This document shows, piece after piece, positions 16-6,686 of a stretch of DNA of 64,000 nucleotides (positions are counted from its first letter, which is position 1; every line of letters begins with the position of its first letter). The stretch is taken from the NCBI GenBank assembly GCA_964016885.1, contig OZ024756.1:35898001-35962000 (forward strand). Reading direction: 5' to 3'. The notes under the pieces were generated by a model that saw only the letters and a list, made by a program, of their open reading frames with translations, was not told the DNA's origin and ran no database searches. This stretch comes from Eledone cirrhosa (Eukaryota). The position numbers and the translations under genes were made by a program.

Positions 16-88
16 AGCCCCCAGTGAGGATCGAACTCACGACCCCTGGTTTACAAGACCAGTGCTCTAACCACTGAGCTATGGAGGC
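16..88 (-). tRNA. tRNA-Thr, anticodon TGT
   Basis: Reverse complement GCCTCCA TA GCTC AGTGGTTA GAGC A CTGGT CT TGT AA ACCAG GGGTC GTGAG TTCGATC CTCAC TGGGGGC T folds into a complete 73-nt cloverleaf with A and B boxes and no intron. Confidence 0.95.
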
Positions 89-584
89 AACCGTGCCGCC
101 AGTACCAAAATTTTAATACATAATTGTATATTTAAGAACTGTAAATTGTGTATCTATTATTTGAATTGTGATAATAGAACAAAAATAATTCATATAAATA
201 AATATGAATTTAGATGGGAGTATTAGGAAATTATTTTTTTTCTACGAGAAGAAATATGACTTATAATTATCACATTGTTCCATATTGTTAATTGGTATAC
301 AGAGATCTAAGAGGAAGAGTTTCTTACATGAGCGGATGAGAAACAAGGGGAGATAATTCTTTGTAAAGCTGCCTTCATTAACAAATCTGATGTAGTGGAG
401 AGCAATAATACAGCAGGTTGCACTTTTAATTCGTGCTGTTATACTGACTTAACTAACACGCATCTTTCATTTATTTTTGTTTAAATTCAAAATTTCTGTT
501 TATATATTTAAAAGCTGTAGTAAAGCACATAAATAGAAGCATCCATATAAAAAAAACGGCTGCTATAATAAAAGTGTATTAAGA

Positions 585-675
585 CTGAGTGGTGCAACAT
601 CGATAGACATTGATAGAGAGCCTCGTTGTGGAGACGACTGTGGTGACGACGACGACGGCGAAAGCTGCAAATAAG
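585..675 (+). other. Candidate non-coding first exon shared by GTF2H5 and ZNF511
   Basis: Locally GC/CpG-enriched patch (gagacgactgtggtgacgacgacgacggcg) ending in AAG|GTGATG, followed by T-rich intron-like sequence. The donor is weak and the start is approximate. Confidence 0.35.
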
Positions 676-914
676 GTGATGACATTATTTTCTCTTTCTT
701 TATCGTTTATTTCATTCTTTAAACTAAATATAAAATGGATAAAAGTCTTCCATCCTCTCATTCCTCTTTTTACTGCATATTTTTACTTTTTTTGTGTGAG
801 TGTATGTTTATATAAACTGCCAACGTATTTCTGTAAATGCTACTATGTTGCGATTTTGTTGTCTCGCACCAAAACATTGCTTCTTTCATCCGTCATTCAT
901 TTCTCTCTTTCTTC

Positions 915-1205
915 ATAGACCTGTGTCTTTTCTCTATAGACTAGTCTATATTTCTTTATAGACCAGAGTCTGGTCTCTATAGATTAGTCTGTTTCTCCAT
1001 AGACCAGTGTCTGGTTTCAATAGACTAGTCTATATTTCTCCTTAGTCCAGTGTGTCTCACCACAGACCAATATCTCTACGGACAAGTGTGTTTCTTTAGA
1101 CTAGTCTTTCTCTATAGACAAGAGTGTCTCTATAAACCACCGTCTCTCTCTCACCATAGACCAAGGATGTCTTTATAAGCCACCGTCTCTCTCACCATAG
1201 ACCAA
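915..1205. repeat. Degenerate ~20-22 bp tandem array (TCTCTATAGACYAGT-like)
   Basis: Recurrent ctatagactagtc / ccatagaccagtg motifs. Confidence 0.6.
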
Positions 1206-1391
1206 CGTGTGTATTACCATAAAGCCGTTCCCTACCATTACTCTTGTGATTGATCAGAGACACTGGAGGACCCTTTAATTCTATCGATGACTTAAGTAAA
1301 GTAGTCTGTGTTACGAAGAGCATCCAGCTGTATAAACTATGTCGAAAATTGGAATTCACAAGCAAAGATGTGATCCTCCTAACTATTTAGA

Positions 1392-1510
1392 TGCGGGCAC
1401 ATGGCCTAGTGGTTAGGGTGTTGGACTCAGGATCATAAAGTTGTGGGTTTGATTCCTAGACTGAGTAGTGCGTTGTAATCTTGAACAAGAAGCTTCATTT
1501 CATGTTGCCT
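1392..1510 (+). mobile_element. tRNA-headed CORE-type SINE, truncated
   Basis: ggcacatggcctagtggttag (A box), gggtttgattcc (B box), cttgaacaagaagcttcatttc; same family as 4515 and 39580. Confidence 0.7.
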
Positions 1511-2077
1511 TTCATTATAAGTGTAGGACCCTATCATTAAAACACTCAAGAAACCTATCACATGTAACTTTGTAGAGGGTCAACTAAACCTGCATAGGTC
1601 GTCATCATCATCATCATTTAACATCCATTTTCCCTGCTAGCAAGGGTTGGACATAGGTGTGAGCTATAAATTCTATTTTTCATTTCTGGAAGGGGTGTTT
1701 GAGGACTCCACCTCCACGACCCTTTCAGGAATAAATGGTGAAGAAGAAGAGATTTCTTGGAGCACATAAACACTATAACTATCAACCCTTACTTCAGCCT
1801 TGTTTTGATCAAACCTATCGTCACCACACCAATGTTGACTCAGTTCCTTTCAATTTTTATATAGCTAATAAAGTAATAACATAAAGTAGCAGTCAAGTAC
1901 TAAGGTTGATTGAATTGACATGCAACTTTCCTGAAAATTGCTGGCCTCCTGCCTAAATCCAAAACCAGTGTAAATATTTTATGTATATATAACTATATAT
2001 AACATGTGTGTGTTCATGGCCCATAATAGAAGAGATCAATAAAATAAACAGTGAACTTGAATAAACGTGCGTGTGTG

Positions 2078-2109
<32 letters not shown>

Positions 2110-2111
2110 TG

Positions 2112-2262
2112 TTCTCTGAGTTCAAATCCTGCCATGGTCATCTTTGCCTTTAATCCATTTGTGGTCAATAAAATAAAGTACCGGTAATGTACTGGGGTCT
2201 ATTTAATCGACTTTCCCCATCCCTTCAAACTGGCCTTGTACCAAGATCAGAAACCATTATTA
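2112..2262 (+). mobile_element. Deu/Nin-domain-like tRNA-SINE
   Basis: tctgagttcaaatcctgcc...ctttgcctttaatcc...ataaaataaagtacc...ctggccttgtacc, ending in an (ATT)n tail; highly repeated in this window. Confidence 0.75.
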
Positions 2263-2460
2263 TTATTATTATTATTGACATGTAAAAATTTCTTATTTTT
2301 CTCTTTCACAGGTTTTATATTTTCCAGGTTCCCTCTTTCAGAATCTCAGTTTGAGAGTTTCTACTAACCAAATGTATGCAGCAACCATTGTAAAGTCCTC
2401 CCCTTGTGTTTAAATATTCCTGGTATTTTAAACTAAACATTCCATCCCTTACTATTCAAC

Positions 2461-2673
2461 ATGGTGAATGTAATCAAAGGTGTTCTGGCTGAATGTGACC
2501 CTGCCATGAAACAATTCCTTCTTCAACTCGATGACAAAAACACTTTAGGGAAAAAATTCATAATTCAAGACCTGGATGATACCCACCTTTTCATCTCTGC
2601 AGACATTCTGGAAACTTTAAAAACCCAGATTAGTGATTTAATGAACAAACTTACATACCCATTAAACGATTAA
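2461..2673 (+). CDS. GTF2H5: General transcription factor IIH subunit 5 (TFIIH p8 / TTDA / Tfb5), 70 aa, intronless CDS
   Basis: [45 protein letters not shown] matches the Tfb5 family signature ([21 protein letters not shown]...[14 protein letters not shown]). The ORF is intact. Upstream acceptor tttttctctttcacag| at 2311, with alternatives at 2327 and 2341. Confidence 0.97.
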
Positions 2674-2859
2674 TTCTCAGACAGCAAACAAACAATATGA
2701 AATTCTAAATTAATTTGCTCACTCTCTTTTCCTTATTTCCCCACTCATCCCTACCATTTCCCCCCCCCCCTTATCTTCTCTCAATGACAAACTAACGTCT
2801 GCTCTACTCTTACAATTGCACACAACTAACAATTCTTGGGGGTTTTTTCTTAGTAAAAA

Positions 2860-2894
<35 letters not shown>

Positions 2895-3063
2895 ACATTC
2901 CTTTCAAAAGAAAAGAGATAATTGAATATATGCATTATGAGAAAATGTCTGATGTAAAGCTACAACATTTAAACTGTCTGCTAGAATATCTATCATCATT
3001 GTCACTGTCATCATGTATGTGTGTCACCACTTACCGTGGCACTAGAACTAATAACCCTCTTAC

Positions 3064-3069
3064 AATAAA
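3064..3069 (+). promoter_or_regulatory. Candidate poly(A) signal for GTF2H5
   Basis: AATAAA about 390 nt after the GTF2H5 stop and about 185 nt before the ZNF511 acceptor. Confidence 0.4.
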
Positions 3070-3308
3070 CATGAACCGATATGAAATTTACTACTTCCTT
3101 GTTGATGTCGGAATCCAAATCTTTATCTTCATCTCAACCCTGAAAGCCATTGAGAAAATGGCACAAAAACCATACAAATACTTTTAAATTAAGGAAAGAT
3201 AAGATAAACCTGAAAATATATTTCTTTTTATTATAAATTTCCTCTCTACAGCAGAAAAATTGAACGCTTATTTGAATTGAATGAGAATCTGTTTAGACAA
3301 CTGTAATC

Positions 3309-3451
3309 ATGCAGCACAAACCATTCTCATGTCAGTGGAATCCAAAGAAACGCCATTTACTTCCTGGTGATAGTTTATTTGAAGATGGAGACATATTTTG
3401 TAACCTTTTGCTAAAGCAAATGTCTTTGGCTGATGAAGAATTTATTAACAA
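3309..3451 (+). CDS. ZNF511: Zinc finger protein 511, coding exon 1
   Basis: MQHKPFSCQWNPKKRHLLPGDSLFEDGDIFCNLLLKQMSLADEEFIN(K) carries the F-EDGD motif of the ZNF511 N-terminus. There is an in-frame stop upstream, a NAGNAG acceptor at 3251/3254 and the donor AA|GTAAGC. Confidence 0.88.
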
Positions 3452-3504
3452 GTAAGCATTCCTTTTCTTTTTCTTTTTCTTTTTCTTTTTCTTTTTCTTC
3501 TTCT

Positions 3505-3705
3505 TCTGCATCTGTCTCCAATTGATCTGACTGGATCCCCAAATGAGGCTTGCCGATCTCATGGATGTTATCCAACCATTTTGCTTGGAGTCTACTTCTG
3601 GGTCTCCTGTCAGTTGGTTTTGTCCATAAAATCCATCCGGCGATTCTTTCCTGAGACATTCTAAACACATGTCCGATATTACAGACAGGCAGTTTTATTG
3701 GCTTC
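3505..3705 (-). mobile_element. RTE-clade LINE 3' fragment with (GAA)n-type tail, in a ZNF511 intron
   Basis: Minus translation GHVFRMSQERIAGWILWTKPTDRRPRSRLQAKWLDNI resembles the RTE C-terminal GHV.RM...R........G.RPRGRP...W motif. Confidence 0.75.
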
Positions 3706-3779
3706 AATTGGTATTCTACATATACTTGCTGTCGTACATTTGTTGTTGATGTTGTAATGTATATTATTTTATTTGACAG

Positions 3780-3839
3780 AATTCCTGAGTTTCCCTGTGG
3801 TATGGCTGGCTGTCAAAAGACTTTCAATAATTTAGTAAG
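3780..3839 (+). CDS. ZNF511: ZNF511 coding exon 2
   Basis: tttgacag|A IPEFPCGMAGCQKTFNNLV AG|GTATGT; first half of C2H2 finger 1, with phases matching both neighbours. Confidence 0.9.
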
Positions 3840-3914
3840 GTATGTGCATTATACATCTCGACGTTTAACTCTTTCCTTACCATATTTCTAGTGAAAGCTA
3901 TTGCTTATGATTTA

Positions 3915-4240
3915 ACAAAAAGTACCCAGCCCACACTGTAAAGTGGTCGTGTAGGTGTCACGACAAAAAACACCCAGTACACACTGTAAAGTGGTCATGA
4001 ATGTGTCACGACAAAAAGCATCCAGCCCACACAGTAAAGTGGTCCTGTAGGTGTCACGACAATATGCATCCAGTAAATGTGGTTGGTGTTAGGAAAGGCA
4101 TCCAGCCATAGAAACCTAGCCAGAAACTTCTATATGAGTAAGACATGGTCACTTGACCCAACTTGTCTCAAATGGGATAACCCGTCTAACCCATGCTAGC
4201 ATGGAAAATGGACATTAAACGATGATGATGATGGTGATGA
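3915..4240 (+). mobile_element. SINE 3' portion with internal ~46-bp tandem repeats and (GAT)n tail
   Basis: Three to four copies of acaaaaa-cacccag-cacactgtaaagtggtc-gtgtcacg, then gttggtgttaggaaaggcatccagcc and catgctagcatggaaaatggacattaaacgatgatg. Related copies at 40790-41045 and 51540-51738. Confidence 0.7.
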
Positions 4241-4283
4241 TGTCATAGTATTATTACTATAGTTAATGTTGTTATTATTTCAG

Positions 4284-4425
4284 TTATGAATGTCACTACA
4301 ATAGCCTTCATCGAAACACCTGTGCTACCTGTCGCCGTATCTTCCCATCGTCCTACCTCCTTGGGCTTCATATACAGGAGTGGCATGATGTCATGTTTGA
4401 TATCATGTGTGGTAAAAAACCTATG
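4284..4425 (+). CDS. ZNF511: ZNF511 coding exon 3
   Basis: tttcag|T YECHYNSLHRNTCATCRRIFPSSYLLGLHIQEWHDVMFDIMCGKKPM|GTAAAA; matches the ZNF511 pattern YE.HY..LH.N.C..C.R.FPS..LL..HI.EWHD..F. Confidence 0.93.
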
Positions 4426-4514
4426 GTAAAAACAACACTTTCTTTTCTCTTCTCATAGCTTTTGTGTGTGTGTATACTGTTATATGTATGATTATGTGTA
4501 GTGTGGTTATGTGT

Positions 4515-4860
4515 GAAGGTACGTGGCTTAGTGGTTAGAGCGTCAGGCTTGCAATCGTGAGGTTGTAAGTTTGATTCTCGGACTGGGCTTTGCGTTGTGT
4601 TTTTTAGCAAAACACTTTATCTCACATTGCTCCAAGTTACTCAGCTGTAGAAATGAGTTGGTGATGTCATTGGTGCCAAGCTGTATCAGTCATTGCCTTT
4701 CCTTTGGACAATGTTGGTTGCGTGGAGAGAGAGACCTGTATGCATGAGCAACTGCAGGTCTTCACAAACAACCTTGCCCAGACGTGTGCCTTGGAGGGGA
4801 ACGTTCTAGGTACAAATCCCATGGTCACTCATGACTGAAGGAGATCTTTACCCATTACCC
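4515..4860 (+). mobile_element. Full-length tRNA-headed CORE-type SINE
   Basis: gtggcttagtggttagagcg (A box), agtttgattctc (B box), ttagcaaaacactttatctcacattgctcc, and a ctttacccattaccc tail. Confidence 0.75.
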
Positions 4861-5023
4861 TATATGTATATACATATGTGTGTGTGTATATATATATAAA
4901 GGGTTTTTCATAGAACAGAAAGAGACCACAGTTAATTAAAGTGTTCAATACATGAAGTAGAGGAGATACATAATTTATTTCAGATACATATCACTCTCTC
5001 ACCATTTCCAAACTCCATTACAG

Positions 5024-5145
5024 TATAGCTGCTTACTAGAAGCCTGTGGACAGAAATTCCAGACCTCCCAACATAGGAAGGAACATATGATTACATGTCA
5101 TAAATATCCCGCCAATTTCCGATTTGATAAACAAAAGAATAAATG
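5024..5145 (+). CDS. ZNF511: ZNF511 coding exon 4
   Basis: cattacag|YSCLLEACGQKFQTSQHRKEHMITCHKYPANFRFDKQKNK TG|GTAAGT; matches the ZNF511 pattern Y.CL.E.C..KF.TS..RK.HM...H.YPA.FRFDK. Confidence 0.93.
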
Positions 5146-5557
5146 GTAAGTTGCATGTCTTGTCTTACTTTACCTTAGCCTTTGCTTTACTGTTTTATCA
5201 CCCTCTCTCTCTAGACATACACATACTTATATGTTCACATTTATGTATGTATTTGCTTGAAGGCTCACACCAACCTCCTTCCTCTATCTACATGCTTACC
5301 TCCCCTGGCCCCATGATTACTTCCCCTTTACATTTGTCATGATTTGAAAAGAAACCAAAACCTTTTAATTTTTTCTTTGTTTTCGTTCTTTCTTTGTTGT
5401 AGACATACACGCGGATATATATATATACATACACACATATATGTAGACATACACACAAATGTGTAGATATACATACAGATATATAGACACACACATATTT
5501 ATACACACACATATGTAAGAAACTATAATATCACGGCTAAGAAGTTGACTTTCACAG

Positions 5558-5818
5558 GTTTTGGCTGTTGTTTGGTGTTAATAGTAGTTGCAATTGTCAT
5601 TACAGTAAAGGTGCAACAGTTTCCACAGAAGATGCAGTGGACAATTTTAATTGCTGTTGCAGTAAAGGTGATGCACCTGCAGAGGCAGAAGATGCAGCAG
5701 AAAGTTGTGATTGTTGTTGCAGCAAAAGTGCACCAAGTGCAGATAACAAGGTAGAAAACATGGAACTAACAACTACAACAACAGCAGCAACAACAACAGC
5801 AAAGAAATATAACTACAA
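5558..5818 (+). CDS. ZNF511: ZNF511 coding exon 5 (5' boundary ambiguous: 5558, 5606, 5663 or 5723)
   Basis: Open phase-2 exon ending ...VENMELTTTTTAATTTAKKYNY AA|GTAAGT, with four in-frame CAG acceptors. The longest form gives a 921-nt CDS (306 aa). Confidence 0.75.
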
Positions 5819-5846
5819 GTAAGTAAATGTCACTATATATATATAC

Positions 5847-5877
<31 letters not shown>

Positions 5878-6017
5878 AGCCCCGGATTCACTCGGGGCTC
5901 ACCACAGTAAGTAAGGTACTAAATGCATTAGTAGAGTGTAAACAACAAATCTAATATAGAAATGGCTTCTATGGGACTAGAATTGTTTCATTCGAAAGAA
6001 ATCATCAGGAAAGCCCC
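5878..6017 (-). mobile_element. Short Penelope-like terminal element with degenerate hammerhead core (family B)
   Basis: Minus strand GGCTTTC CTGATGA TTTC TTTC GAAT GAAA CAATTCTAGTCCCA TA GAAGCC. Homologous to 30041-30174 and abuts a (TG)n tract. Confidence 0.55.
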
Positions 6018-6493
6018 GATAATTTTCAAAATAATCAAAACTTTGGCAATATTCAGTAATATAACTTTCTCACTAAGATGCTGTTTGGAACCATAACTTA
6101 ACAAAGGTTCTTACATAAAATTATGATGGTAGGTTTTTAGATAAATATAAACATTTTAACTCGTCCATTTGAAGTTGATGAAAAAAAAGTAGTAGTCTAG
6201 ACTGAGGTCAATTCTTCCTCTATATCTCTTTCTCTCAGACCTGGAGATGAAATGGGCTCTGCCAGGTTTTAAAATACACTAGAAACGCTGTAATCAATAC
6301 GACTCCGTCAGGAGTTATGAGTCCTTGCTTGCAAACATTTTAATATAAATAGTTCCATAACCTGCAACCAGGGACAGTTTCCAGTGAGTTTTGCTATGAA
6401 AAGGGTTAAAATTGGATGCTTATTTGATGTTAGTTGAGTTAATGTTTAGTTTAGCCTCAGATAATTCTATTTTTCTGTTTCTCATTTTACCAG

Positions 6494-6686
6494 GATCCCT
6501 AAGAATATCTGTTTCGGTAAGGGCTCTGTGAGAACATTCCAGAAGCAACAGCAGAACCGTTCCAAACATTGGCACCAACAGTTCCAGAAAGAGACACCTG
6601 ACAATAGTCGAGGTAGCAGTGCTGGAGATGACAGTCAGCAAGTAACCATGACAGATCTGATGACTGCACTCGAAGAAACCAGTTAA
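6494..6686 (+). CDS. ZNF511: ZNF511 terminal coding exon
   Basis: ttttaccag|G IPKNICFGKGSVRTFQKQQQNRSKHWHQ...MTDLMTALEETS*; matches the ZNF511 C-terminal IP..ICFG.G..R.F motif. Confidence 0.92.

Follow-up and report, generated by a model that had tools for sequence, protein, structure and literature searches.

GTF2H5 ahead of ZNF511 in Eledone cirrhosa: a probable read-through bicistronic RNA

How are two unrelated genes expressed when they lie 635 nt apart on the same strand and a single upstream exon seems to serve them both? This question is raised by GTF2H5, which encodes TFIIH p8 (TFB5), and ZNF511 in a stretch of 64,000 nt of Eledone cirrhosa (assembly GCA_964016885.1, contig OZ024756.1, positions 35,898,001 to 35,962,000 of the forward strand), hereafter the window. 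An earlier note, made from the letters of this DNA, had proposed that the two genes share a transcription unit, either as a bicistronic mRNA or through alternative choice of acceptor and poly(A) site, with GTF2H5 nested in the first intron of ZNF511. The layout it described was borne out, as both open reading frames (ORFs) are on the plus strand with 635 nt between them, and the donor at 675/676, the acceptors at 2311 and 3251/3254, the AATAAA at 3064 and a divergent tRNA gene are all present in the sequence. Both are real, ordinary genes, and it is their arrangement that is unusual. We consider it probable that they are expressed from a GTF2H5-first read-through bicistronic RNA with ZNF511 as a new partner. 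A non-coding exon 1 would be spliced to an exon with the intact GTF2H5 ORF, the RNA of this exon 2 likely continues across the spacer of 635 nt and on into spliced ZNF511 to give one two-gene mRNA, and p8 would be translated first, at the first strong AUG. A single promoter beside the tRNA-Thr gene would drive the unit, and one molecule would span both ORFs.

The read data comprised four runs (X1-X4) of one study, none of them recorded as RNA, and were used as assembled contigs only; spliced contigs were the sole ground for taking X4 as RNA. The behaviour of this run is that of RNA, for its contigs are spliced and it has no cover over the unique intron sequence 709-1326, where the DNA-type runs X1-X3 do have cover. 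The features of the unit are the following.

395-675, plus strand: non-coding exon 1, its 5' end being the start of an RNA-type contig, not a mapped transcription start site
676-2311, plus strand: intron 1 (GT...AG), with its junction in an X4 contig
2312-3451, plus strand: putative long exon 2, which would hold all of the GTF2H5 ORF, then the spacer and the beginning of the ZNF511 coding sequence, built from X4 contig pieces 2310-2744 and 2900-3451 with presumed continuity over 2745-2863
2461-2673, plus strand: GTF2H5/TFB5 (TFIIH p8) coding sequence, 70 aa, an intronless, uninterrupted ORF
2674-3308, plus strand: inter-ORF spacer, 635 nt with 13 AUGs
2745-2863, plus strand: stretch uncovered by RNA-type contigs, 119 nt, with a C run inside and a T run at its end
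3064-3069, plus strand: AATAAA, through which an RNA-type contig reads
3238-3254, plus strand: acceptor-like site 3251/3254, used by no contig and a candidate for a minor ZNF511-only RNA
16-88, minus strand: tRNA-Thr(TGT), divergent to the unit

Counted at 80% likeness, only two X4 contigs lie on 2290-3470. The first joins 400-673 to 2310-2744, with an AG shared at the joint, and thus confirms the predicted 675>2312 junction; it has 5 more letters before 400, and the start of exon 1, formerly placed at 585, is corrected to about 395 or earlier. The second, of 1106 nt, runs over 2900-3451 without a joint, past the AATAAA at 3064 and the acceptor at 3251, and continues with the letters of the exon at 3780. 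Ahead of 2900 it has 36 more letters, lying in a skipped repeat, and so would start near 2864; the 518 letters left over equal three exons and a further 194 nt, with an end at either 5799 or 6687, both of which fit, the exon at 5606 being in or out. Contig depths (16 versus 28.9) were not used to rank the genes.

The GTF2H5 ORF was identified by Pfam Tfb5 (PF06331, E 4.4e-28, 97.5 bits against a cut-off of 23.5), whose domain spans the whole of its ~70 aa. Its nearest named relative is Octopus bimaculoides TFB5 (93%), and both lie in one starred cephalopod clade of the tree. The start codon context is strong, with A at -3 and G at +4; only two short upstream AUG frames, at 2372 and 2376, stand ahead of it, and exon 1 (395-675) holds no ATG at all versus 5.9 expected. 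Allelic differences are present in the DNA run X3 at 2390 and 2745-2758, the variant at 2390 being common to X4.

The same neighbourhood can be traced in other cephalopods. In O. vulgaris, record CAI9737901.1 has GTF2H5 residues 1-29 fused to ZNF511, and CAI9737902.1 is the ZNF511 protein alone; therefore the two genes are neighbours of the same orientation there and belong to a single gene model. This fusion isoform could not arise in the same way here, the window having no GT donor after codon 29, and the record was used for adjacency only. In O. bimaculoides, accessions A0A0L8HLX9 and A0A0L8HM03 are close to each other, which is a weak hint. Five GTF2H5 and ten ZNF511 records of cephalopod type (decapodiform-type matches) make 50 pairs, and the longest contigs are equal in size for two of them, 1798 (P0003 and the full-length spliced P0141) and 2465 (P0005 and the first-exon piece P0145); by rough simulation two such matches have P about 1.5e-4, the comparison being one of sizes. 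Hence GTF2H5 and ZNF511 are likely on shared contigs in these cuttlefish-type records. Moreover, none of the seven members of the six cephalopod-type GTF2H5 clusters has an NCBI accession, as three Octopus ZNF511 proteins do. Missing accessions would be expected if a small upstream ORF gets lost in annotation, and the arrangement may thus explain why cephalopod GTF2H5 had no NCBI protein record in the look-ups made, and why it is fused in one annotation.

A scan of metagenomes gave 49 GTF2H5 loci, many of them redundant, and the queries for partners other than ZNF511 were drawn from the loci themselves. A same-strand partner follows GTF2H5 in 30 of the 49: ZNHIT1 in 18, which recovers the Drosophila-type pair, CDC26 in 5, ZNF511 in 3, ELP6 in 2, and BolA then GWT1/PIGW in 2. 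Pfam supports these assignments (zf-HIT in 8 of 10 tested, CDC26 in 2 of 2, ELP6 in 2 of 2, and BolA and GWT1). The remaining 19 loci have no such partner, four of them ending at most 58 nt downstream and one (L014) having an RNase H ORF. With five partner types downstream, the suggestion that p8 repeatedly hitch-hikes on other genes is supported, and GTF2H5-ZNF511 is one of several pairings with the 70-codon p8 ORF as short upstream gene. The three ZNF511 loci (L002, L005 and L006) represent two non-cephalopod species, with GTF2H5 identity of 66-69%, and they follow the plan of the window, in which an acceptor precedes an intronless GTF2H5, here by 51-97 nt, a spacer comes next, here of 206-319 nt and without A(A/T)TAAA, and ZNF511 follows up to a homologous donor. 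In the tree, GTF2H5 of L002 and L005 falls outside the starred cephalopod clade, at an open branching point close to a sequence from a scallop. Judged from these sequences, the GTF2H5-ZNF511 pairing is likely old and would predate the cephalopods.

A COA4 ORF (twin-CX9C, Pfam CHCH, atlas matches 0.94-0.96) stands upstream on the same strand in both of these species, in L002 (5347-5553) and L005 (459-668), in L002 with a GT donor directly after its stop, and COA4-GTF2H5-ZNF511 is a candidate three-gene unit at these two loci. No COA4 remnant was found in the window or in the 10 kb upstream of it, and the genome of E. cirrhosa has an intronless COA4 on another contig (C6; L059 1492-1713), away from GTF2H5. 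The same seven letters precede the donor in exon 1 of the window (660-682) and in the COA4 exon of L002 (5540-5562), which may be chance, and no protein similarity was found. A 'tRNA-Thr' of L002 was not counted as synteny, as its anticodon and orientation differ and it looks degenerate.

Several points weigh against a single read-through RNA. The stretch 2745-2863 is unbridged in X4, although DNA contigs cross 2745-2849. The proposed shared transcription unit is supported by the 675>2312 junction and by the contig running unspliced from the spacer into spliced ZNF511; one molecule across both ORFs is not proven, because overlapping RNAs of two genes would merge alike in contigs, here from one run of one study. 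Contigs also drop minor isoforms. The comparative loci are DNA and show gene order, not transcripts, and the arguments from equal contig sizes and missing accessions are indirect. The spacer has considerable length and no shortage of AUGs (13 seen versus 8.2 expected), and the ZNF511 spacers of L002 and L005 show no depletion (4 versus 7.3 and 5 versus 5.2, respectively). No stable fold was found in the spacer over 2890-3311 (z -0.96 versus shuffles), and spacer similarity was absent between L002 and L005 (122 of 300 shuffles reach the score) and between the window and L005 (277 of 300), and marginal between the window and L002 (7 of 300). Finally, the stop at 2673 has several introns downstream of it, the classic layout for nonsense-mediated decay. 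Some of this would suit two tandem genes whose RNAs are separate and abut or overlap, the GTF2H5 RNA ending in the spacer and the ZNF511 RNA starting inside or close to the T run, or at a later point of the spacer; 2745-2863 would then be expected to stay unbridged, a short leader would skip most of the 13 AUGs, and overlapping RNAs would have been merged in the contigs. We regard this as unlikely, though not lightly dismissed. Assembly breaks can explain the gap because both contig ends coincide with places where an assembler may fail: position 2744, where the first contig stops, directly precedes an allelic difference in X3, and the start of the second contig lies within a run of 25 T at which the DNA contigs break too. 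For this reason the gap was rejected as evidence of an RNA end. Tandem genes are also disfavoured by the few CpG of the spacer, set against a CpG peak at 601-800, by the short spacers without A(A/T)TAAA in L002 and L005, and by the likely shared contigs of the cuttlefish-type records.

The other option of the earlier note was a nested arrangement with alternative acceptors as the main route, exon 1 being joined either to 2312 (for GTF2H5, ending after 3064) or to 3252/3255 (for ZNF511). A good acceptor with an AG-free run does lie 57 nt before the ZNF511 AUG, and with an exon 1 free of ATG such a leader would carry one weak-context upstream AUG only. This form was not seen as the main one and in that role is quite improbable, since the X4 contigs, within what contigs retain of minor isoforms, have no joint at 3252/3255, none breaks at 675 or 3252, and 3064 is read through, as far as contigs, which do not reveal RNA ends, can tell. 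Both signals are also within chance in 635 nt at window-wide rates (P about 0.09-0.33 for the acceptor, P 0.31 for the AATAAA), and the strict acceptor pattern occurs in neither the L002 nor the L005 spacer. Hence, of the two options, the bicistronic one is favoured. An unpaired acceptor ahead of ZNF511, together with tight same-strand COA4-GTF2H5-ZNF511 clusters in L002 and L005 that resemble invertebrate operons as generally known, could also suggest a precursor of operon type that is split up by trans-splicing of a spliced leader at 3251. We give this very little credence, as X4, seen through its contigs, has no foreign letters joined at 3252/3255; to our knowledge cephalopods have no established spliced leader, although no search was made. 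It is scarcely credible that a recent insertion in cephalopods placed GTF2H5 in ZNF511 intron 1 as a retrocopy, and the retroposition once suggested found no support. The coding sequence is intronless while other animals have an intron at codon 12 or 36, and vertebrate GTF2H5 has a coding intron, but the same intronless order with ZNF511 exists outside the cephalopod clade. Moreover, the ZNHIT1-linked copies at 18 loci are intron-bearing (codon 12) in nine and intronless in nine, some of the intronless ones lying on genomic contigs of several kilobases, and copies linked to CDC26 are likewise of both kinds; because copies linked to the same partner come with and without introns, the intron was lost in place without a change of partner. 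The own genome gave a single GTF2H5 match among ten candidates scored, and thus no second, intron-containing copy that could be the parent, although a split two-exon parent could score low. Six short two-copy repeats around GTF2H5 include no convincing target-site duplication, and there is no A tract after 3064. A very ancient retroposition of GTF2H5 would still be conceivable.

If the read-through bicistronic RNA is the main form, ZNF511 has to be translated behind 6 further AUGs inside the GTF2H5 coding sequence and the 13 of the spacer. At 15 other-partner loci, with spacers of 26-107 nt, 2 AUGs were seen versus 10.4 expected (P 0.002, with species that are not independent and the partner start taken as the first long ORF). 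In green algae, according to PMC11291117, an added inter-ORF AUG cuts downstream output by more than half. Because of the 13 spacer AUGs, the lack of AUG depletion and this algal effect, plain scanning across the spacer is unlikely to yield ZNF511 protein. We favour, with slightly less than even confidence, a minor shorter RNA (exon 1 joined to 3252/3255, or an internal start) as its source; inefficient re-initiation or leaky scanning is a reasonable possibility, and internal entry or shunting seems rather doubtful.

Small upstream ORFs on bicistronic mRNAs are familiar from vertebrates, in SNURF-SNRPN, ASDURF-ASNSD1 and MOCS2, in which, as in the window but with different genes, a larger spliced ORF is preceded by that of a small, conserved subunit of a complex. 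The MOCS2 bicistron is also named in PMC2276209. With TFB5 itself in first position, Drosophila and other arthropods have the bicistronic mRNA Tfb5-Dmp18 (p8-p18/ZNHIT1, CG31917), as described in PMC9514664, PMC7013941 and PMC2276209, and an interaction of p8 with p18 is reported in flies (PMC5090060). There, as presumably in the window, TFB5 is the short upstream ORF before an unrelated gene on one RNA. Unlike the Drosophila pair, the window has ZNF511 as the partner and a spacer of 635 nt with 13 AUGs, versus 26-107 nt with almost none at other-partner loci. In Chlamydomonas, PMC7896298 and PMC11291117 describe the bicistronic REX1 locus, where REX1-S, the TFB5 homologue, is paired with REX1-B; as in the putative window transcript, a TFB5 ORF on a two-ORF transcript is missed by longest-ORF annotation. 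In contrast to the window, algal bicistrons use leaky scanning, which needs few upstream AUGs, the REX1 spacer is 14 nt in Auxenochlorella, and the partner differs. The GTF2H5-ZNF511 pair was not found in the literature searched (titles and abstract openings), a search outside which most subscription papers fall, and databases or supplements may list the pair. Thus TFB5-first bicistrons are known from arthropods and green algae, and what is new is probably the ZNF511 partner in cephalopods and other marine invertebrates.

These comparisons suggest that GTF2H5 stays in place as the short upstream gene as its partners are exchanged, and why small complex subunits ride on the mRNAs of other genes becomes testable by comparison. 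The long AUG-rich spacer is at odds with algal leaky scanning and makes the locus well suited for studying how downstream ORFs are translated and decay is escaped in animals. A bolder reading, which we put forward as speculation and think on the whole unlikely, would have p8 travel time and again on polycistronic mRNAs throughout the eukaryotes (with ZNHIT1, REX1-B, ZNF511, CDC26, ELP6, BolA+PIGW), and would add a so far undescribed lophotrochozoan COA4-GTF2H5-ZNF511 three-gene mRNA, hundreds of millions of years old and without trans-splicing, of which cephalopods would keep the last two genes, with ZNF511 translated beyond a long, AUG-rich spacer by some route other than scanning.

For the downstream gene itself, five exons within the window match the O. 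vulgaris protein, and the orthology of the gene is indicated by one exon with 98% identity to O. vulgaris 'finger 511-like'. The model 3309-3451, 3780-3839, 4284-4425, 5024-5145, 5606-5818, 6494-6686 gives an open frame of 290 aa with its stop at 6686, from these parts.

3309-3451, plus strand: start of the ZNF511 coding sequence, up to a donor that is in use
3780-3839, plus strand: ZNF511 exon, junction 3451>3780 seen in an X4 contig, O. vulgaris match
4284-4425, plus strand: ZNF511 exon with a C2H2 finger, O. vulgaris protein match
5024-5145, plus strand: ZNF511 exon, O. vulgaris protein match
5606-5818, plus strand: likely ZNF511 exon, 213 nt, in frame, of low complexity and with weak O. 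vulgaris similarity
6494-6686, plus strand: last coding exon of ZNF511 to the stop, O. vulgaris protein match

The likely exon 5606-5818 exceeds its counterpart in other Octopus proteins in length and has two short cysteine-rich repeats. An open frame on the minus strand at 3510-3690, in a ZNF511 intron, resembles what we take to be the C terminus of a LINE reverse transcriptase. Further along the window, at 8000-64000, the open frames of at least 170 aa are all simple-repeat frames, and no long coding exon was seen.

Some of the metagenome loci are of interest in their own right. In L003 (194-2478) and L004, GTF2H5, BolA and GWT1/PIGW stand back to back, intronless and with spacers of ~90 nt, as a candidate three-ORF transcript. 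CDC26 lies within about 60-80 nt after GTF2H5 in L011, L036, L040, L041 and L043, and the database protein P0247 is a TFB5-CDC26 fusion; no TFB5-ZNF511 fusion was present among the further TFB5 representatives listed. L017 and L019 have an intronless ELP6 39-47 nt after GTF2H5, and in L014 (263-1377) GTF2H5 is followed by two short ORFs without a family and then by the RNase H ORF. Just upstream of GTF2H5 and on the same strand, a Muted/BLOC1S5-like ORF is found in L027 (4291-4749) and an ORF for a UCH-domain ubiquitin hydrolase in L034 (3390-5693).

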